This document shows positions 192-37,814 of a stretch of DNA of 39,667 nucleotides, one piece after another (the first letter of the stretch is position 1; each line of letters opens with the position of its first letter). Position numbers and translations under genes: made by a program. Under the pieces are notes generated by a model. It did not search any database and was not told the DNA's origin. It worked only from the letters and a program-made list of their open reading frames with translations. Source of the DNA: Candidatus Nealsonbacteria bacterium CG07_land_8_20_14_0_80_39_13 (GTDB taxonomy: Bacteria; Patescibacteriota; Minisyncoccia; Minisyncoccales; GCA-002779355); contig PEWS01000027.1 of the NCBI GenBank assembly GCA_002779355.1, positions 1 to 39,667 on the forward strand. Direction: 5' to 3'.

Positions 192-259
192 CACCTTTAA
201 GGCGCCGATAAGCGCTAATATTAAGCTGATTTCCGCAGATATGCGTAGCGGATAATCCG

Positions 260-284
260 AAAGGAGCTTGGCTCCCTTTTATTT
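260..284 (+). terminator. Possible intrinsic terminator after tRNA-Thr
   Basis: GGAGC-TTG-GCTCC hairpin followed by CTTTTATTT. Confidence 0.45.
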
Positions 285-294
285 GCTTAGAAAA

Positions 295-323
295 TTGACA
301 TTGATATGGTTGTGCGGTATTAT
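295..323 (+). promoter_or_regulatory. Sigma70-type promoter (TTGACA-17-TATTAT)
   Basis: Consensus -35 at 295-300, a 17-nt spacer, and TATTAT at 318-323. An ATG-TAA start-stop pair begins 6 nt downstream, at 330-335. Confidence 0.6.
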
Positions 324-701
324 TTCTGTATGTAAATCTACGCTACCCTACGCGCTCTTTTAAATTTTAAACGGCCTTAATATTCGGAATGTCCGGAATG
401 GTCAGAATAAATTAAAAAGAGAAAGATGAAGGTAAAAATATAAAAATTAAAAATATAAAATATAAAAATAAAAATCTAAAAAAATGAACGCACGGGTAAT
501 GATTGCAAGAAGGAGAAAAAGAATTAAAGGAAAAACAGAAACAGGAGGGGGTTGCGGATGGACAGGGCTTCTTAAAAAAGATCCAAACAGACGTCATCTT
601 CGTGCCTGAACAAACCCCTTGGAGAACCATTCTTTTATCGGCTCTTCTTTTTTTGCTTTAAGTTTTGCGGAAAAAATGATAAGCTGTATTTATATTAAGG
701 T

Positions 702-1815
702 ATGGAAAATTTGAAAGAAAAACAAGAGAAACAGGAAGAGCTGCAAAAAAGAATCCTCGCGCTTGAGGACTGTCTTTGACGTTGAGAAAAAGAAAAACAT
801 GATAATTGAGATGGAAAAAGAAACCCTGTCTCCTAATTTTTGGGAGAGAAGGGAGGACGCAGTCAGGATCAGTCAGGAATTATCCCAGTTGAAAGAGGAT
901 GTGGCGGAAATGAATTGCCTGAAAGAGGATTTTGAGATAATAAGGGACTTAGGCGAAGAATTAGAGCTGGAAAAATTGGAAAAGAGAATAAAAGAAAAAG
1001 AAAAAATGCTTTTTCTTTCCGGAAAGTATGACAAGGGCAACGCCTTCCTGACTATTTATTCCGGGGCAGGCGGACAGGATGCGCAGGATTGGGTGGCTAT
1101 TCTGTTGAGAATGTATGAAAAATATTGTTCCCGCAAGAATTTTAAAGTAAAGATTTTGGATCAGGCCTTCGGAGAAGGAGGCGGGCCGGAAGGAAGAATT
1201 GGAGTAAAGCAAGTTTCTTTAGAAATTATCGGTCCATACGCCTACGGTCTTTTAAGAGGAGAAATGGGAGTTCATAGGTTGGTCAGGATTTCTCCTTTTT
1301 CTTCTAAATCTTTAAGGCACACCTCATTTACTTTAGTGGAGGTTTTGCCCGAAGTGAAGGAAGCGGGAGATATGATTGTTCCTCCGGATGATTTGAGAGT
1401 TGATCTTTATCGTTCTTCAGGGCCGGGCGGGCAGAATGTCAATAAAAGAGAGACAGCAGTCAGAATAACTCATTTGCCGACAGGAATTGTTGTCGCCTGC
1501 CAATCAGAAAGGTTGCAGGGTTCAAACAAACAGAAAGCGCTGGAAATTCTTTATTCAAAACTTTATGAATTGAATAAAGATAACAAAAAAAAGGAGATGT
1601 CTGAAATAAAGGGAGGAAGGATTTCAGCTGAATGGGGAAGCCAGATAAGATCTTATGTCGTTCATCCTTATAAAATGGTAAAAGATTTAAGGACGGATGT
1701 TGAGACTTCCGATGTGGATAAAATTTTAGACGGGGGACTTGATGATTTCATTGAAGCGGAACTTAAATTACCTGCCCGCAATGCTGAATATAGCGATGCA
1801 GGCGGGAAAAGCTAA
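702..1815 (+). CDS. prfB: Peptide chain release factor 2, made by +1 programmed frameshift (ORF0 702-776, then 778-1815)
   Basis: ORF0 reads MENLKEKQEKQEELQKRILALEDCL and ends at CTT TGA C (774-780), the classic RF2 shift site. The downstream frame carries the SPF and GGQ motifs (RISPFSS, SGPGGQNVNK). Confidence 0.93.
1771..1806 (+). repeat. GC-rich palindromic element, in-frame copy at the prfB C-terminus
   Basis: CCTGCCCGCAATGCT-GAATAT-AGCGATGCAGGCGGG. The arms pair, with wobbles and mismatches. It encodes PARNAEYSDAGG. Confidence 0.7.
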
Positions 1816-6648: not shown

Positions 6649-6684
6649 AAATATTAAAATAGCGTTTGAGAACAACGGAGGAGA

Positions 6685-6709
6685 ACAACGGAGGACGGGC
6701 CTCCGTTGT
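6685..6709 (+). terminator. 10-bp GC-rich hairpin after the hydrolase gene
   Basis: ACAACGGAGG-ACGGG-CCTCCGTTGT, preceded by a direct repeat of GAGAACAACGGAG. There is no strong U tract. Confidence 0.4.
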
Positions 6710-6734
6710 AAAATTATCTCAAATATACTAATAT
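6706..6734 (+). promoter_or_regulatory. Promoter TTGTAA-17-TAATAT, 7 nt before the ATG (leaderless layout)
   Basis: -35 at 6706-6711, -10 at 6729-6734, ATG at 6742. Confidence 0.55.
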
Positions 6735-6741
6735 TGTAAAT

Positions 6742-6990
6742 ATGGCAAACATCTATCTTCAAAAGCAATTAGAATACTTTAAGGCGCGTCAAAAAGAACT
6801 CGTAGAAAAATACGAAGGGAAATTTCTTGTCATCAATGGCCAGAAAGTCCATGGCGTTTATGATACAGAAATAGAAGCATATGCTGACGCTAAAAAGAAA
6901 TTTGAATTAGGCAATTTTTTAATCCAACAATGTCTATCCGGTCAAGAAAGCTATACCCAAACCTTTCATTCTCGGGTTGCGCTTTCTTGA
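6742..6990 (+). CDS. Small DUF5678-like protein
   Basis: The pattern KYEGKFLVINGQKVHGVYDTEIEAYADAKKKF resembles DUF5678 small proteins. This is from memory of the family, not a search. Confidence 0.45.
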   Translation: MANIYLQKQLEYFKARQKELVEKYEGKFLVINGQKVHGVYDTEIEAYADAKKKFELGNFLIQQCLSGQESYTQTFHSRVALS

Positions 6991-11595: not shown

Positions 11596-11835
11596 TTTTC
11601 AATTTTTAATTTTCAATGAATTTTCAATTTTCCAATTTTCAAAAAATAATATCAATGCCAATTGGGATTTTGATTTTTTCAGGGATTTTTTTAATGACGA
11701 ATTGTGTTTATGCGGGCATGGATCATGGCTTGACGTGCCGGATATTAATTCCATAGAAGAACCAAAAATCCTCGATCAAATAATTTCCACTTTTAAGTTT
11801 TTGAAGTAAAAATTGAATTTTGGTGAAAAATTTGA

Positions 11836-11841
11836 TAATAT
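11836..11841 (+). promoter_or_regulatory. Extended -10 (TGATAATAT), 6 nt before the DUF433 ATG
   Basis: TG at 11833-11834, TAATAT at 11836-11841, ATG at 11848. Confidence 0.45.
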
Positions 11842-11847
11842 TAAAAT

Positions 11848-12063
11848 ATGAATCGAATCGCATATAATAAGAAAATACTTGGTGGCAAACCTATTATTAA
11901 GGGAACAAGGATTTCCATTGAATTTATATTGGAACTTTTAGCATCGGGAATGGAACCGGAGCAAATTATAAAAGAATATCCTTCCCTTAAAAAGCAAGAT
12001 ATTTTAGCTGTTCTTGAGTATGCAGCCATAACCGTAAAAAGAGAAGAGTTTATCTTCGCTTAA
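11848..12063 (+). CDS. DUF433 antitoxin-like protein
   Basis: GGKPIIKGTRISIEFILELLASGMEPEQIIKEYPSLKKQDILAVLEYA is the typical DUF433 core. Confidence 0.75.
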   Translation: MNRIAYNKKILGGKPIIKGTRISIEFILELLASGMEPEQIIKEYPSLKKQDILAVLEYAAITVKREEFIFA

Positions 12064-12066
12064 TTT

Positions 12067-12426
12067 ATGGGTATTATGAAATTTTTAGCTGATGAAAATA
12101 TAGCGCCTCGCGTAGTTTTAGTTTTAAGGGAAAACGGGTTTAATGTAACGAGTATTTGCGAAGAGAAATTTTCCGGCGCTTCAGATGAAAAAATTCTTAA
12201 ATTAGCTCAAAAACAAAAGAGGATTATTCTAACCCACGATAAAGATTTCGGCGATTTAATCCACCAACCATTTCAGCCTCCTTGTGGGGTAATCTTATTA
12301 AGATTGAGAAATCAATCGCCGGACAGCGTTATAAATCATTTAATTCCTTTTTTAGGGAAAATTGGTCTGGAAAAAATTAAAAACAGGCTAGTTATCCTAT
12401 GTGAAGGAAAGATAAGAATAATCTAA
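12067..12426 (+). CDS. DUF5615 PIN-like toxin partner of DUF433
   Basis: MKFLADENI...SD.KIL.LA...RIILTHDKDFGDL pattern. It starts 4 nt after the DUF433 gene. Confidence 0.7.
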   Translation: MGIMKFLADENIAPRVVLVLRENGFNVTSICEEKFSGASDEKILKLAQKQKRIILTHDKDFGDLIHQPFQPPCGVILLRLRNQSPDSVINHLIPFLGKIGLEKIKNRLVILCEGKIRII

Positions 12427-13423: not shown

Positions 13424-14669
13424 TAAAATTAAATCAATAAGGGCGAGAGAAATTTTGGATTCAAGGGGAAATCCGACAGTTGAAGTTGAATTGAAAACCA
13501 AGCTCGGCTGTTTTTACGCTTCGGTTCCGTCGGGCGCGTCAACAGGGGAATGCGAGGCAGTTGAATTAAGGGACGGCGGAGAAAGATATGGCGGGAAAGG
13601 AGTTTTGAAAGCTCTAAAAAACATCAACGAAATTATTGCCCCTAAACTTAAAGGGAAAAGCGTTTTAGAACAGAAAAAAATAGATGATATAATGATTAAG
13701 CTGGATGGCACGGAGAATAAATCAAAATTAGGCGCTAATGCTATTTTGCCGGTTTCAATGGCGGTTTGCCGAGCCGGCGCTGCCACAAGCAACATTCCCC
13801 TGTATAAATATATCAACAAAATTCAAAATTCAAAATTCAAAATTCAAAATTTCAGAGCGCCTTCTCCTTGTTTTAATATCATTAATGGAGGAGCGCATTC
13901 CAGCAGCAATCTGGATATTCAGGAATTTATGATCATTCCTCAGGGGAATAATTTTGCGGAAAATCTTCAAATTTCAACGGAAATTTATCATAATTTGGAA
14001 TCTATTTTTGAGAAAAAATTTGGCGCCGGGTCCGTGAGTCTGGGAGACGAGGGAGGGTTCAGTTCAATGACCCTTGGCGTTGAAGATGCTCTGGATATTA
14101 TAATGAAGGCTGTAAATCACAAGAAATACGGAGAAAAAATAAAATTGGGCCTGGATTGCGCCGCCAATCATTTTAAAAAGAAAAATTCCAGCCAATACTT
14201 TTTGGAAAATAGAGAGCTTTCATCAGAAAGTTTAATGAATTTTTATCAGGATCTTGTTGATGAATATCCGATTATATTTTTGGAAGATCCATTTGCCGAA
14301 AAAGACTTTAACGGTTTCAAGGAAATTCAGCGGCTATTGAGAGAAAAAATATTGATTATCGGCGATGATTTGATATGCACTAATCCTAAAATGATCAGAA
14401 AAGCGAAAGAAGAGAATTTATGCAATGGGATGATTGTAAAAATGAATCAAATAGGAACAATTTCAGAAACATTAGAGGCAGCGGCCTTGGCTAAGTCGTT
14501 CAGCTGGAAACTCATCACTTCTCACCGGTCAGGCGACACCTGCGATGATTTTATCGCTGATTTAGCAGTGGGAATTGGTAGCGACTTTATAAAATCCGGC
14601 GCTCCGGCCCGCGGTGAACGCGTGGCAAAATACAATCGCTTGTTGAAAATCGAGCAAGAACTTAATTAG
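13413..14669 (+). CDS. eno: Enolase
   Basis: ILDSRGNPTVEVE, SVPSGASTGE.EA.ELRDG, NGGAHS, IQEFMI, SHRSGDT. Confidence 0.95.
   Translation: MENNKIKSIRAREILDSRGNPTVEVELKTKLGCFYASVPSGASTGECEAVELRDGGERYGGKGVLKALKNINEIIAPKLKGKSVLEQKKIDDIMIKLDGTENKSKLGANAILPVSMAVCRAGAATSNIPLYKYINKIQNSKFKIQNFRAPSPCFNIINGGAHSSSNLDIQEFMIIPQGNNFAENLQISTEIYHNLESIFEKKFGAGSVSLGDEGGFSSMTLGVEDALDIIMKAVNHKKYGEKIKLGLDCAANHFKKKNSSQYFLENRELSSESLMNFYQDLVDEYPIIFLEDPFAEKDFNGFKEIQRLLREKILIIGDDLICTNPKMIRKAKEENLCNGMIVKMNQIGTISETLEAAALAKSFSWKLITSHRSGDTCDDFIADLAVGIGSDFIKSGAPARGERVAKYNRLLKIEQELN
13818..13853 (+). repeat. Heptanucleotide tandem repeat (AAAATTC x4 plus a partial unit) inside eno
   Basis: Direct reading. It translates as KIQNSKFKIQNF in a variable surface loop. 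Confidence 0.9.
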
Positions 14670-23015: not shown

Positions 23016-23043
23016 TTTGACATAATCTCTCATTTTGATAAAT
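23016..23043 (+). promoter_or_regulatory. Promoter TTGACA-16-TAAAAT (with TGn), 7 nt before the hicB ATG
   Basis: -35 at 23016-23021, -10 at 23038-23043, ATG at 23051. Confidence 0.55.
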
Positions 23044-23050
23044 TTAAGGT

Positions 23051-23308
23051 ATGTTCCAAGATTTTTTGACTTTTTATTTGAATAAAGCCAAATACGAGCT
23101 GATTGAAAACGGCAAGGTTTATTATGGGGAGATTTCCGAACTAAGAGGTGTTTGGGCAACAGGAAAAACTATCGAAGAATGCAGAAAGAATCTTTTAGAA
23201 ATTATTGAAGGATGGGTAATTTTGAGATTGAGAAAAAATTTATCGATTCCAAATTTTAAGATTCCTTACAAGAAAATTTCTTTTAACAGGGTTTATGCCA
23301 AAGCTTAA
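23051..23308 (+). CDS. hicB: HicB-family antitoxin
   Basis: YYGEISELRGVWATGKTIEECRKNLLEIIEGW matches the HicB/UPF0150 pattern. It overlaps the hicA start. Confidence 0.7.
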   Translation: MFQDFLTFYLNKAKYELIENGKVYYGEISELRGVWATGKTIEECRKNLLEIIEGWVILRLRKNLSIPNFKIPYKKISFNRVYAKA

Positions 23309-25917: not shown

Positions 25918-25940
25918 GGAATTTATGGTAAAATTAAAAT

Positions 25941-26924
25941 ATGTTAGACATTATTACTTTTGGCTCGGCGGCCATTGATATTTATCTTAAATCAAAAAAA
26001 CTTAATCTCGTTGACAGCAATAAATTCCCGACCGGCACAGGAGTCTGTTTTTCTTTAGGATCCAAAATAGAGATTGATGATATTATTTTCCTCGGCGGAG
26101 GAGGAGGAACGAATACCGCAGAAACTTTTTCCCGGCAAGGGCTGAAGACAGGATATTGCGGAATGGTTGGAAAAGATATGGCCGGAGAAGAAGTCATTAA
26201 AGACTTGGCTGATTCCGGCGTGGAAAGCTTTATCGTCAGAACTGATAAGAGAAAAACTAATCAGTCAGTCATTCTTTCCCAAAACGGCAACGAAAGAAGT
26301 GTTTTGGTTTACAGGGGAGCGTCAGGAGAACTTTCAAGAAAAGACATTCCCTTTAATAAACTGAAAGCGAAGTTTTTTTATTTTGCTCCTTTGTCTGGCA
26401 AGCTTTGCCATGACTTTGAATTTTTGGTTAACTTCGCCCATGAGAGCGGAGCTAAGGTGGTTGTCAATCCCAGTTCTTATCAACTCGCCTTACCCAAAGA
26501 TAAATTTAAAAGAATTATTAAAAAAGTTGACATTTTGATATTAAATCAAGAAGAAGCGTCTCTTCTTACGGGAATACCGTTTGAGAAAGAAGAAGAACTT
26601 TTCAAAAAAATAGATTGTTATTGCCCTGGGATAGCCATAATGACAAAAGGATCGGAAGGGGTGGTTGTTTCTGACGAGAAAAACATTTATCGGGCCAAGT
26701 CTTTAAAAACTAAAGAAGTGAATGCTACCGGCGCCGGCGACGCATTCAGTTCAGGATTTGTTTCCGGTTTCATTGAAACCAATGGAGATATTGAGTATGC
26801 CATCCGGCTGGGAATAGCCAACAGCGTTTCCTGCATAAAGAAAATGGGAGCGAGGAATGGTTTGCTGAAAAGAGGAGATAAGTGGGAAAAGGTAAAAGTT
26901 GAAAAGATAGCTATCAAAAATTAA
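25941..26924 (+). CDS. PfkB-family carbohydrate kinase
   Basis: GGGGGTN near the N-terminus and the NATGAGDAF anion hole near the C-terminus. Confidence 0.8.
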   Translation: MLDIITFGSAAIDIYLKSKKLNLVDSNKFPTGTGVCFSLGSKIEIDDIIFLGGGGGTNTAETFSRQGLKTGYCGMVGKDMAGEEVIKDLADSGVESFIVRTDKRKTNQSVILSQNGNERSVLVYRGASGELSRKDIPFNKLKAKFFYFAPLSGKLCHDFEFLVNFAHESGAKVVVNPSSYQLALPKDKFKRIIKKVDILILNQEEASLLTGIPFEKEEELFKKIDCYCPGIAIMTKGSEGVVVSDEKNIYRAKSLKTKEVNATGAGDAFSSGFVSGFIETNGDIEYAIRLGIANSVSCIKKMGARNGLLKRGDKWEKVKVEKIAIKN

Positions 26925-31155: not shown

Positions 31156-31425
31156 TTAATCCTTCTTTGATGTCTTTTCGGCTGTCCGTTTTCTTCTTTT
31201 TTCTTTCTTACTTTTGGCATCAGTCTTATGAGACATTCTCTTTCTGAATTTTTCCACCTTAGCCATAGCGTCGGTATCTTTTTCTTTTCCGGTATAAAAA
31301 GGATGGCATTGAGAGCAGATTTCAGTCTCAATGTATTCCTTAGTTGAACCGACGGTAAAAGTATGTCCGCAGGCGCATTTGACCTTGGTCTCGGGATAAT
31401 ATTTTGGATGAATATCTTCTTTCAT
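31156..31425 (-). CDS. rpmE: Ribosomal protein L31 with a Lys-rich C-terminal extension
   Basis: MKEDIHPKYY, CACGH...CSQCHPFYTGK zinc-ribbon type. Confidence 0.92.
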   Translation of the reverse strand: MKEDIHPKYYPETKVKCACGHTFTVGSTKEYIETEICSQCHPFYTGKEKDTDAMAKVEKFRKRMSHKTDAKSKKEKRRKRTAEKTSKKD

Positions 31426-31432
31426 ATTGAGT

Positions 31433-31461
31433 ATAATAACAAATCCCTAAATTAAAAGCAA
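31433..31461 (-). promoter_or_regulatory. Promoter TTGCTT-17-TATTAT, 7 nt before the rpmE ATG (leaderless layout)
   Basis: Minus-strand reading: -35 at 31456-31461, -10 at 31433-31438, start codon at 31423-31425. Confidence 0.55.
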
Positions 31462-33470: not shown

Positions 33471-34962
<1,492 letters not shown>

Positions 34963-35076
34963 AATTGTTTGTCGACCGTGGTTGAGAAATGAGAATTCTT
35001 TTCTCAACTTTGCGGGGTTGGTCGAATTCCTGAAAAAATCGACCTTCGGAACAACTCAAAGATACTGAAGAACTAC

Positions 35077-35102
35077 AAAAAACAAGGCAGGCCTTGTTTT
35101 TT
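35077..35102 (+). terminator. Intrinsic terminator after the 16S trailer
   Basis: AAAAAACAAGGC-AG-GCCTTGTTTTTT. Confidence 0.8.
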
Positions 35103-35148
35103 GGGTTTAATTTGCTAAAATTAAAATCACTTTTCATAATCAACCCAA

Positions 35149-35742
35149 ATGATTTTTTATAAAATTTTTTCTTATATATACAAAAGAGCGGCTCGGAGCA
35201 TGTGCCTGGACTGCAAGGATTTTATAAAGAATGGGGCGAAAATTCTTGATTTAGGTTGCGGTTCGGGAATAGCCGGAGATTATTTTAAAAAATTTTTTAA
35301 GGCCGAGGTTTTTGGGGTGGATGTAAAAAATAATAGGGTGGTTGATCTTCCCTTTAAAAAAATAGACGGGAAAAATCTTCCCTTTGATGATAATTCGTTT
35401 GACGCAGTTCTGATATGCTATGTTCTTCACCACGCCGAAGACCCCATCGCCGTTTTAAAAGAAGCGAGGAGGGTGGGGAAGGAAAGGATTGTTATTTACG
35501 AAGATATGGCTGACGGATTTTTTTCAAAATTATTCTGCCGTTTCCATGGATTAAGCTTTGATATTTTCTTTCAGGGATTTGTCGGCAAAAAGCGGGAAAA
35601 TCCGGAATATTTTTTTAAGGGGGAGAAAGAATGGCAGGGGATTTTTAAGGGATTGGGGCTGAAAGTTGTTTTTGAGAAAAGGATTTCGTTGCCGATTTCC
35701 CCGGTCGCCAAAAGAATTTTTATTTTAGATATCGTAAAATAA
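35149..35742 (+). CDS. Class I SAM-dependent methyltransferase
   Basis: Motif I ILDLGCGSGIAG and the post-I acidic residue; FDAVLICYVLHH. Confidence 0.8.
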   Translation: MIFYKIFSYIYKRAARSMCLDCKDFIKNGAKILDLGCGSGIAGDYFKKFFKAEVFGVDVKNNRVVDLPFKKIDGKNLPFDDNSFDAVLICYVLHHAEDPIAVLKEARRVGKERIVIYEDMADGFFSKLFCRFHGLSFDIFFQGFVGKKRENPEYFFKGEKEWQGIFKGLGLKVVFEKRISLPISPVAKRIFILDIVK

Positions 35743-35767
35743 TATGCGTTTGAAAATATAATAATAT

Positions 35768-35831
35768 GCGTGTGTAGCTTCGGCCTCGTCCAGAGGACGA
35801 TCAGCCTTTGGCTGAGGTTAGAGCGCGTCAC
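35768..35831 (+). pseudogene. Decayed duplicate of the 5' half of tRNA-Ile (nt 1-32), with 37 nt replacing 6 nt of the D loop
   Basis: GCGTGTGTAGCT + 37 nt + GTTAGAGCGCGTCAC, compared with the intact GCGCGTGTAGCT-CAGTTG-GTTAGAGCGCGTCAC at 36091-36123. Confidence 0.7.
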
Positions 35832-35839
35832 CTTTGGAT

Positions 35840-36100
35840 ATGTTCTGTGTGTATTTTTTGAAAAGCATTAAAAATGGTAAGATTTACGTAGGATTTACTT
35901 CTAAAAATATTGAGGTAAGGGTTGAAGAACATAATAGCGGTTCAAACGTTTTTACGAAAAACAATAAGCCATGGGTTTTGGTATATTATGAGATATTTAG
36001 TTGTGAAAAATGCGCTAGAGCGAGAGAGAAGTTTTTTAAATCGGGTATGGGTAAAAGATTAAAAAAGATAATTGTAGATAATTTTAATATGCGCGTGTAG
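35840..36100 (+). CDS. Small GIY-YIG nuclease family protein
   Basis: VYFLKS..GKIYVGFTSKNIEVRVEEHNSG is the GIY-YIG motif. The stop codon TAG lies inside the tRNA-Ile gene. The track start 35834 is TTG. Confidence 0.8.
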   Translation: MFCVYFLKSIKNGKIYVGFTSKNIEVRVEEHNSGSNVFTKNNKPWVLVYYEIFSCEKCARAREKFFKSGMGKRLKKIIVDNFNMRV

Positions 36101-36164
36101 CTCAGTTGGTTAGAGCGCGTCACTGATAATGACGAGGTCCGTGGTTCGAGTCCACGCTCGCGCA
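36091..36164 (+). tRNA. tRNA-Ile (anticodon GAU)
   Basis: GCGCGTG-TA-GCTC-AGTTGGTTA-GAGC-G-CGTCA-CTGATAA-TGACG-AGGTC-CGTGG-TTCGAGT-CCACG-CTCGCGC-A. Confidence 0.9.
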
Positions 36165-36243
36165 CTCTTTCACCTCGCTCTCTTGCCGTTATTCGGCAGG
36201 GGGAACGGAGTTTTGTTTTAAGGCGGTTTTTTGTTTGAAATAC

Positions 36244-36272
36244 TTGACAAGATTTATATAGTATGCTATACT
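36244..36272 (+). promoter_or_regulatory. Consensus promoter TTGACA-17-TATACT
   Basis: -35 at 36244-36249 and -10 at 36267-36272. An ATG follows 6 nt later, at 36279. Confidence 0.7.
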
Positions 36273-36278
36273 TACATC

Positions 36279-36422
36279 ATGAGAGTTAATCCTGAGCAGA
36301 CATACGAAAAAGTGCTCAGGGGAAAGTACGGAGAGGTGTATTATCTTTCGTTCACAAGGGGGACGCCCGTACCGCCGAACGTAGGCGATTGCAGGAGATT
36401 TTCTCATCCATGGAAGAGCTAA
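36279..36422 (+). other. Leaderless 47-codon sORF or a ~127-nt structured RNA; status unresolved
   Basis: As an ORF it reads MRVNPEQTYEKVLRGKYGEVYYLSFTRGTPVPPNVGDCRRFSHPWKS. The same bases fold into a closing stem ATGAGAG/TTCTCAT plus three hairpins. Confidence 0.35.
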
Positions 36423-36854
36423 AGAAGTTCCTTCTTAGTCAGGAGGATTTCAATGATTTTTCTAGATTTGAAGATGCAGAGAGCTGCATTTTCAAGGACG
36501 AAAAATTCCCGTGCGCCTTCACGGGATAGGTGTTTAAGGGAGCACGACAATAATTGTCCTCTGCCCCTATATTTCTAAGTTCGGAATTACATTATTAAAA
36601 AATTACGAATTTAGAAATGCTCCGGTCCCGCTGAAAGCGGGACGGGGGTTTAAAGAAAGAAGTCGGAAGCGCTTTCGCGACGGGGATATCTCTTTCCAGT
36701 TCTTCGCAAGAAGAACAATCTCTGTTACGAAAGCACCCCCGGCTTTTTTCAGTCCAGAGGACTATTCAGCCCAGAGAGCTTTCAAGTTGTAAATGTGTCA
36801 ATGAGGAGGTAAAATAGAAAAATAAGAACAATATTTAGAATATTTTTGAACTCT

Positions 36855-37814
36855 ATGAAAACTCGAAAGGAAGATAATATAATTTACCATGGTAGTAATT
36901 GGGTATTGGTTGAAACCCAAGATGATAATCTTTTTGATATATTGTACAAAGAAGGGTACGAGAGAGTGGTTTTGGTGAATCAATTGGGTGTGGACGGTAC
37001 ATTTGAATATATTATTGGCAAAAAAACAGAAAAAACGGATGATTTTCCGGTCGGCCCAGAAACCGAAGAAGGATCGATACTTTTCGAATTAAATAAATTA
37101 GAGATGGGTTGGGCTGGCAGTATTCAGTATGGTGGAGCGCCAATAAATACTGATGGTTCGAGATCATTGCTTACTCCGCAGATGGTCATCAGTGTTATTA
37201 ATAAAGTTGTCAATAAAAAGGATGAACAAAATTTTCTAATCGGCAAAGATCAACAATTTGAAATTGACCCGGAAAAATTATTCTCCAAAGAATCATCATG
37301 CTATCAAGTGGAAACAGATCGGCTGGGCAAAGTATCCTATGTAAACATAGATAACGCCGCTACAACTCCGCCTTTTATATCGGTGCAAAATGGCGTTAAT
37401 GATTATTTAAAGACTTATGGTTCAGTTCATCGTGGAGCTGGTACTAAATCAAAAATATCTACTGATATTTACGAACAAACACGGCAAGTCATTAAAAATT
37501 TTGTTGGGGCTCCGGAAAATTTTTATGTTCTTTTTTCCGGAAACACAACTGGAGCCATGAATAATGTAGCCTATTTTTTCTCATTTCTTGATGGAAAGGT
37601 GGCGGTATCGGAAATAGAGCATAGCTCATCTTGGTTGCCATGGATTAAAGCTGAAGGTGAAAGATCGTTGGGAGCAAATCGCGTTGATTTTGCACATGTG
37701 CATGAAACACAAGAAAAAATACAAGAAGCGGGTCGTGAAATGGTTTTGAGGTATCCACTCAATAGCGAAGGTGAGTTTGACCTCGCTGGCATTGAAGAAA
37801 TGCTAAAAAAATAA
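36855..37814 (+). CDS. Class V aminotransferase / cysteine desulfurase-like PLP enzyme, 5' fragment with ~150-aa N-terminal extension
   Basis: NIDNAATTPPF, SVHRGAG, FSGNTTGAMN, EIEHSS..PW. It ends at a TAA right after an A7 run. Confidence 0.75.
   Translation: MKTRKEDNIIYHGSNWVLVETQDDNLFDILYKEGYERVVLVNQLGVDGTFEYIIGKKTEKTDDFPVGPETEEGSILFELNKLEMGWAGSIQYGGAPINTDGSRSLLTPQMVISVINKVVNKKDEQNFLIGKDQQFEIDPEKLFSKESSCYQVETDRLGKVSYVNIDNAATTPPFISVQNGVNDYLKTYGSVHRGAGTKSKISTDIYEQTRQVIKNFVGAPENFYVLFSGNTTGAMNNVAYFFSFLDGKVAVSEIEHSSSWLPWIKAEGERSLGANRVDFAHVHETQEKIQEAGREMVLRYPLNSEGEFDLAGIEEMLKK

Follow-up and report, generated by a model that had tools for sequence, protein, structure and literature searches.

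Promoters positioned six nucleotides before ATG and a predicted minority of leaderless genes in a bacterial genome without the anti-SD motif

The window and its candidate start sites

The window, by which we mean the whole stretch of DNA that was analysed, is a single contig (C12, 39,667 bp) of a 586-kb draft genome (G000; 44 contigs, 39% GC, approximately 96% estimated completeness). Within it, a pair of promoter hexamers directly precedes a DUF5678 gene at 6742, and similar pairs stand before several other ATGs (Table 1). The window also carries the 16S rRNA gene, the 3′ tail of which lacks the anti-SD motif.

The −35 box of the DUF5678 promoter runs into a hairpin, AACGGAGG-N5-CCTCCGTT with a 10-bp stem, that is found at four intergenic loci: window 6668–6709, two places on contig C31, and C38:8667. 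For the copy in the window (hairpin 6685–6709), the left arm is present as two tandem units of 13 nt, and the TTG with which the −35 box opens at 6706 is part of the right (3′) arm. These hairpins are probably a family of bidirectional terminators.

Table 1. Coordinates of the features discussed, in the window unless a contig is named.
Feature	Coordinates	Strand	Elements and spacing	Support or remark
Near-consensus promoter (11/12) with ATG 330	295..335	+	TTGACA 295-300, 17 nt, TATTAT 318-323, 6 nt, ATG 330	not a gene start
prfB with its own extended −10	677..704	+	TGaTAAGCT 677-685, 16 nt, ATG 702	predicted leader ~10 nt
Promoter and DUF5678 gene (6742-6990)	6706..6990	+	TTGTAA 6706-6711, 17 nt, TAATAT 6729-6734, 7 nt, ATG 6742	sequence; Pfam DUF5678 E=1e-5
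Extended −10 and DUF433 antitoxin-like gene (11848-12063)	11833..12426	+	TGaTAATAT 11833-11841 (TGa 11833-11835, TAATAT 11836-11841), 6 nt, ATG 11848	
UPF0150/HicB-like gene (23051-23308)	23017..23308	+	TTGACA 23017-23022, 16 nt, TGa-TAAATT 23036-23044, 6 nt, ATG 23051	Pfam UPF0150 E=1.3e-25; offset-6 class
Site missed by the first-pass annotation	25926..26924	+	TGgTAAAAT, 6 nt, ATG 25941	327-aa gene
rpmE (bL31) (31425-31156)	31156..31461	-	TTGCTT 31461-31456, 17 nt, TGt-TATTAT 31441-31433, 7 nt, ATG 31425	Pfam Ribosomal_L31 E=5e-26; residue 1 = profile position 1
16S rRNA gene	33471-34961			3′ end ...GGGGAACCTGCGCATAGATCAATAATTTTT
16S rRNA 3′ tail	34949..34962	+	GATCA-ATAAT-TTTT	ATAAT in place of CCTCC; anti-SD absent
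Strong promoter with 47-codon ORF at ATG 36279	36244..36422	+	TTGACA 36244-36249, 17 nt, TATACT 36267-36272, 6 nt, ATG 36279	sequence; ORF list
S1-domain matches (PNPase, NusA) and loci checked for bS1	C43:9270-9557, C43:32309-33664, C38:7936-8750			in G000

The first-pass annotation of the window had picked six promoters by eye, each with a −10 box 6–7 nt before the A of an ATG. On re-reading the sequence, we find the geometry as described at five of them (including 6742, 11848 and rpmE); at 23051 the −35 box, the spacer and the 6-nt gap are also present, but the hexamer had been misquoted as TAAAAT. As gene starts, four of the six (6742, 11848, 23051 and 31425) precede real genes, in all of which a Pfam profile begins within the first ten residues, and those at 330 and 36279 fail. 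The DUF433 gene (Pfam E=4e-23, profile from residue 4), a member of the offset-6 class defined below, has the highest promoter score among the window's leaderless-layout sites; the next gene, at 12067–12426, is DUF5615/PIN-like (Pfam DUF5615, E=2.5e-28). At the additional site, 25941, the gene starts 23 nt past the preceding one, with its promoter embedded in the 3′ end of that upstream gene; its product, judged by eye, is presumably sugar kinase-like.

The two sites that fail do so in different ways. At 330 the codon following the ATG is TAA and there is no gene; the promoter is placed for a transcript that opens with a start-stop pair, AUG-UAA, approximately 370 nt ahead of prfB. The region from 330 to 700 includes an extreme A-rich stretch (410–485) and no recognisable gene, and an Rfam search of window 200–900 at a permissive threshold found no family. 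The release factor gene itself begins with a short frame ending at the CTT TGA shift site and, having its own promoter, is a leadered counter-example. At 36279 the promoter lies directly after tRNA-Ile and heads approximately 570 nt (36244–36850) in which there is one ORF of 47 codons. This ORF has no Pfam match (Pfam returned nothing for the 47-, 41- and 52-aa ORFs), a DNA search with 36166–36860 in 40 relatives gave short promoter-like matches only and no conservation of the ORF, and Rfam, again at a permissive threshold, found the tRNA alone over 34950–36900. The region 36244–36850 may encode a small RNA that has escaped recognition, or may form a long leader for the gene at 36846. Because both of these sites look perfect and yet lack a credible ORF, the layout alone is no proof of a leaderless gene. 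Moreover, sigma-70-like matches are common in AT-rich DNA (71 were found in 20 kb, with 49±7 expected), and since single promoter-like matches come so cheaply, we tested a fixed offset instead.

A fixed offset between −10 box and ATG

The 645 genes used here were called from codon statistics (codon log-odds) by a home-made procedure that takes the first ATG, GTG or TTG of an ORF as its start and uses no promoter information; 567 were usable for the offset test. We defined a full promoter as TANNNT accompanied either by TGn or by a TTxxxx −35 box (at least 4/6 matches) at 16–18 bp. Measured across the genome, as the first-pass annotation had proposed, the distance from −10 box to start codon shows a sharp spike: the first start codon is preceded by a full promoter at a distance of exactly 6 nt in 46 of the 567 genes, compared with 2.5±1.9 at offsets 12–120 and with 0, 6 and 4 at offsets 5, 7 and 8. 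The claimed 6–7-nt distance is therefore borne out at 6 but not at 7, the spacing of two of the four real examples, which has no general excess genome-wide. The same preference appears when gene calls are left out entirely, with TGNTANNNT-N6-ATG occurring 59 times vs 6–29 (about 18) for each of the remaining offsets between 0 and 24; in this genome-wide count GTG, TTG and CTG have no spike at offset 6. The offset-6 layout is real and far from chance.

These counts bear directly on the idea that the pattern arises from AT-rich composition, from in-frame TAA/TAG stop codons that delimit ORF starts, or from picking by eye. That idea draws on the many sigma-70-like matches expected by chance (49 per 20 kb), on the two of six picks that are not genes, and on the TANNNT counts, which do ripple with a period of 3 (offsets 0 and 9 are raised) as a result of in-frame stops. 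Nevertheless, the offset profile is flat at 14,313 non-start ATGs used as a control, the reversed pattern gives 3 matches vs 59, and TA[TC]NNT, which cannot contain a stop codon, retains its offset-6 excess (20 vs about 8), ruling out the in-frame stop artefact. For the class as a whole, the offset-specific, stop-free, non-start and reversed controls lead us to reject a compositional origin, to which we give hardly any credence; for single sites such as 6742 a chance pattern could still hold. A leaderless start at 6742 is plausible, the individual case being weak given that its offset of 7 has no genome-wide excess.

The 46 aligned sequences resemble promoters in positions that played no part in their selection, with T at −17 in 74% and T at −1 in 78%. 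T at −35 is found in 80%; the alternative −35 criterion demands T there, so this figure is independent only in part, and T−15 (80%) and G−14 (85%) belong to the TGn that was one of the selection criteria. The resulting consensus, TnTGnTAnaaT, is that of an extended −10 promoter of the low-GC Gram-positive kind. The class starts almost exclusively with ATG (44/46, vs 77–86% in other gene classes) and includes 24 of 192 operon-leading genes vs 5 of 237 internal ones, making it about six times commoner in the former.

From these sequence features we consider it probable that some 50–70 genes of the 586-kb genome are transcribed as leaderless mRNAs. In the mechanism that we propose, a sigma-70-type promoter, usually with an extended −10 element (T-17 n T-15 G-14 n TAnaaT) and with or without a TTG −35 box at 16–18 bp, would present its hexamer at −12 to −7 from the A of the ATG. 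Six nucleotides between hexamer and ATG put that A at the canonical +1, and RNA polymerase would start on it. The ribosome would then bind the 5′-terminal AUG directly and without SD pairing, which is impossible here because the 16S rRNA has no CCUCC; by analogy with leaderless mRNAs in other bacteria, where these modes are established, binding may be by 70S ribosomes or dependent on IF2. The other ~90% of the genes, including all that are internal to operons, would be leadered, with an A-tract at −7 to −2, U at −1 and weak predicted structure.

The promoters might instead be real while transcription starts 1–3 nt before the ATG, or while a downstream ATG is used, in which case the mRNAs would be near-leaderless or leadered. 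Offsets 7 and 8 do occur (7 at rpmE; 8 and 12 genes, respectively, in the relative G040; 7 and 11 in G031), three dnaE orthologues have offset 8, and recA has a second ATG at its canonical N-terminus. On the other hand, the spike in G000 is confined to offset 6, with 5, 7 and 8 near background; RNA polymerase usually prefers a pyrimidine-purine start, which T−1/A+1 provides; and the restriction to ATG fits recognition of a 5′-terminal AUG. We give this reading a slim chance. A different objection would make TAnnnT at −12 to −7 an A/U-rich translation enhancer, acting at the mRNA level within a normal leader, rather than a promoter element. The upstream regions of all genes are A/U-rich and free of SD motifs, and Bacteroidia have A-rich motifs at −11 to −14 (PMC6847099). 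However, the TG at −15/−14 (with 85% G at −14), T−17 and the TTG −35 box at 16–18 bp are meaningful only for RNA polymerase, and internal genes, which are necessarily translated from within an mRNA, lack the motif, as reflected in its roughly sixfold preference for operon-leading genes. We therefore regard an enhancer as a very remote prospect and retain leaderless transcription as our interpretation of the class.

Members of the class include dnaE, lepA, tyrS, rpsT, rpsF, rpmE, greA, pth and a class I aminoacyl-tRNA synthetase gene that we take to be ileS, together with several HicB-, DUF433-, XRE- and Fic-type genes. For rpmE, rpsT, rpsF, pth, dnaE, lepA, HicB and DUF433, the match to the Pfam profile begins within residues 1–7 of the predicted protein, which supports the predicted ATGs as true starts. 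The case of recA is ambiguous: the leaderless ATG adds 24 residues before the canonical N-terminus, and translation may really begin at the internal ATG, in which case the leader would be 72 nt long.

In all, 46–51 genes lie at offset 6, with perhaps 10–20 more at offsets 7–8, corresponding to ~8–12% of genes. To see how these relate to other promoters, we scanned the regions upstream of 212 leading genes with a position-weight matrix built from the class, using the 99.9% random threshold as cut-off; 140 of them have a promoter above it. By distance (d) from the start codon, these fall into 27 at d=6, 5 at d=7, 5 at d=8–9, 3 at d=10–19, 31 at d=20–39, 32 at d=40–79 and 36 beyond. Predicted leaders are thus bimodal, either none or ~15 nt and longer, with 4–13 nt avoided. 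About a quarter of the leading genes with a detectable promoter (27–37 of 140) have the leaderless layout, that is, no or almost no leader, and in the window the same is predicted for 4–5 of ~20 transcription units. The first-pass suggestion that initiation is mainly leaderless is contradicted by these proportions: leaderless starts are a minority route in this genome.

The leadered majority and the relatives

For the remaining genes, the description of 5′ ends as A-rich and unstructured, which the first-pass annotation had also put forward, agrees well with what we find. There is no enrichment of G upstream of either leading or internal genes, G being depleted at −12 to −1, and GGAG, GAGG or AGGA is present in 8% of upstream regions vs 17% inside genes. 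What is enriched is a positioned A-tract at −7 to −2: AAAAA starts peak at −7/−6, A makes up 53–61% at −6 to −3, and AAAA lies within −8 to −2 in 28% of genes vs 7% in the control. Directly after the tract, T occupies −1 in 55–60% of all genes (consensus uAAAAAAU-AUG); under the idea of an extended anticodon, a U in this position might form a pair with A37 of the initiator tRNA. The mean predicted folding energy of 40-nt segments is −2.4 kcal/mol at starts vs approximately −5 inside genes, and the GC content around the start is 26% vs 40%. The first 40 nt of the predicted leaderless mRNAs are weakly structured as well (−3.0 kcal/mol). AUG, which is depleted near starts in Bacteroidia, is observed here at 0.45 of expectation at −20 to −2, compared with ~0.6–0.68 elsewhere, a measure that is biased by the first-start-codon rule.

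We also considered the A-tract, or some other motif, as a replacement SD matched to the new 16S tail, and judge this improbable: 5-mers complementary to AUAAU (ATTAT, TTATT) are neither enriched nor positioned. Pairing of the A-tract with the 16S tail is unlikely, as only A-runs are enriched and −7 to −2 is too close to the AUG.

Ribosomal protein bS1 appears to be missing as well. Searches of the whole G000 assembly with Pfam S1 and NCBIfam rpsA match PNPase and NusA only (Table 1), most relatives have a bS1 of 270–440 aa, and the G000 locus that is syntenic to the bS1 gene of G040 is on an intact contig and has no bS1. Loss of bS1 is probable in this 96%-complete draft, and it would be unusual for a genome to lack both the anti-SD and bS1. 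One could go further and suppose that the whole proteome is served by two start modes independent of both SD and S1, one using a 5′-terminal AUG and the other an A6-U tract abutting the AUG, and that the tract, beyond keeping the mRNA unstructured, acts as a specific signal for recruitment, recognised either by a ribosomal protein or by the U-rich tail that has taken the anti-SD's place in the 16S rRNA. We assign this extension a small, though not negligible, chance. If it were true, these organisms would serve as a naturally minimal model for initiation in bacteria, one nearer to the mitochondrial situation than to that of E. coli.

To place these features in a wider context, we examined the 40 nearest genomes, all of which belong to the same order and to different families. 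Among the 16S tails recovered, only that of G038 keeps GGATCACCTCCTTA; G032 has CATCTCC, and the rest are varied and A/U-rich. The pattern is more frequent at offset 6 than at offset 10 in 33 of the 40 (1228 vs 754; Wilcoxon p=3e-7), 15 relatives are individually significant at p<0.01, and the largest offset-6 excess is that of G000 itself (59 vs 24). With the TGn pattern there is no offset-6 excess in G038, G031, G033, G010, G004, G002 or G011; the tails of G004, G010, G031, G033 and G011 are without CCTCC, and that of G002 was not recovered.

We repeated the whole analysis on 344–400 kb of sequence from each of three relatives. In G038 (344 kb examined), where the anti-SD is intact, SD-like motifs lie upstream of 8% of genes, compared with 12% for the control; start codons are again preceded by A-rich sequence with T(−1), and the offset-6 signal is weak (8/318). 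Of the two without an anti-SD, G040 has a clear offset-6 spike (28/383 genes), and G031 a broader and smaller one (31/447 over offsets 6–8), its modest excess being seen with the broader promoter definition. The link that the first-pass annotation had drawn between leaderless or A-rich starts and the missing anti-SD is thus a loose one: because the CCUCC-keeping G038 also lacks SD motifs, SD-free initiation is order-wide rather than dependent on loss of the anti-SD. Similarly, we rejected the proposal that leaderlessness tracks anti-SD loss, as several relatives without the anti-SD show no TGn offset-6 excess; the comparison includes a single genome in which the motif is intact (G038, with no such excess either), too few for a control. 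The leaderless share varies between families. That SD use was lost before the anti-SD decayed is suggested by the one genome with an intact anti-SD, G038, which would represent a Bacteroidia-like situation inside the CPR.

Individual genes differ in how well their layout is kept. The arrangement TTGATT-17-TGnTAAnAT-7-ATG precedes rpmE in no fewer than 12 of ~25 relatives that belong to other families, G038 among them. Of the six sites, rpmE has the strongest comparative support, despite its offset of 7. For dnaE, an offset of 6 is kept in 5 of 30 relatives; apart from the three at offset 8, the others have 13–24 nt between box and ATG, indicating that promoters slide over evolutionary time and that single cases are labile. 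In two relatives, G034 (L092) and G003 (L085), SD-like sequences (TAGGAGGG, AAGGAAG) lie 8–13 nt before the dnaE start; the 16S tails of these two were not recovered. Some parts of the order may still use SD motifs.

Several practical and evolutionary consequences follow if these readings are right. Gene callers that assume SD motifs will misplace starts in these genomes, and the TGnTAnnnT-N6-ATG rule can both correct starts and predict promoters. The order-wide pattern suggests that SD use was abandoned first and that the anti-SD then decayed, with the leaderless share drifting between families.

Comparison with known systems

The layout corresponds to that of the "TA-led" leaderless genes of Zheng et al. 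(2011, BMC Genomics 12:361; PMC3160421), who used the −10 signature genome-wide across bacteria. The accepted computational signature is a −10 box ~10 bp (a 6–7-nt gap) before the start codon, with a TG peak in low-GC genomes (PMC3160421), and in Deinococcus transcriptomic and reporter data have confirmed a −10 motif 6–7 bp before ORFs as the mark of leaderless genes (Zhong et al., 2025; PMC12340547). As in those genes (PMC3160421, PMC12340547), TANNNT lies 6–7 bp before the start here, there would be no 5′ UTR, and many functional classes are represented; the TG peak before the box is shared with the low-GC Lactococcus and Mycoplasma (PMC3160421). The phylum of the present genome lies outside both surveys (PMC3160421, PMC12340547). 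The leaderless share is lower here, ~8–12% vs ~20% in Actinobacteria and 33–46% in Deinococcus. Furthermore, the leadered genes of TA-led organisms use SD motifs, whereas the present genome has neither SD-using genes nor an anti-SD in its 16S rRNA.

In Mycobacterium tuberculosis, Cortes and colleagues reportedly mapped experimentally, in 2013, a sizeable minority of transcripts with their 5′ ends at the start codon. Toxin-antitoxin modules are said to be prominent among those leaderless transcripts, in line with the HicB-like, DUF433 and XRE/Fic genes of the class described here. That system differs in that its starts were mapped experimentally and include GTG, and in that the genome is GC-rich with a functional SD/anti-SD pair; the start sites in our genome are predicted and the class is ATG-only.

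The leadered ~90% of genes are most reminiscent of Bacteroidia, for which Baez et al. (2019; PMC6847099) described SD-independent initiation with "Kozak-like" upstream adenines: both have no SD, A-rich upstream regions and reduced predicted structure at the start. In Bacteroidia, too, leaderless mRNAs fail to account for the absence of SD motifs (PMC6847099). Bacteroidia keep an anti-SD, which is sequestered (bS21/bS18/bS6), whereas G000 has AUAAU for CCUCC and is not a member of that group. The A signal also differs, being contiguous from −7 to −2 and followed by U−1 here, and located at −3, −6, −12 and −13 in Bacteroidia.

The closest precedent for the 16S trait is the work of Tsurumaki et al. 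(2022, RNA 28:1041; PMC9297842), who reported a subgroup of Parcubacteria without the anti-SD motif, the motif being detected in only 48% of Parcubacteria. The clade and the 16S trait are the same as here. Their paper contains no treatment of mRNA start regions, promoters or leaderless genes ("leaderless" and "upstream" have no matches in the full text of PMC9297842). The published loss of the anti-SD (PMC9297842) thus left unaddressed how start codons are found, and our analysis of one genome and three relatives gives a first concrete answer: SD motifs go unused, also in the genome that retains the anti-SD; promoters are fused to the start codon in a minority of genes (up to ~8–12% here); and the rest have a positioned A-tract and U−1. 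Our full-text literature searches found no paper on leaderless genes in CPR/Patescibacteria/Parcubacteria. The leaderless start is a known way of starting genes that is newly documented in this lineage.
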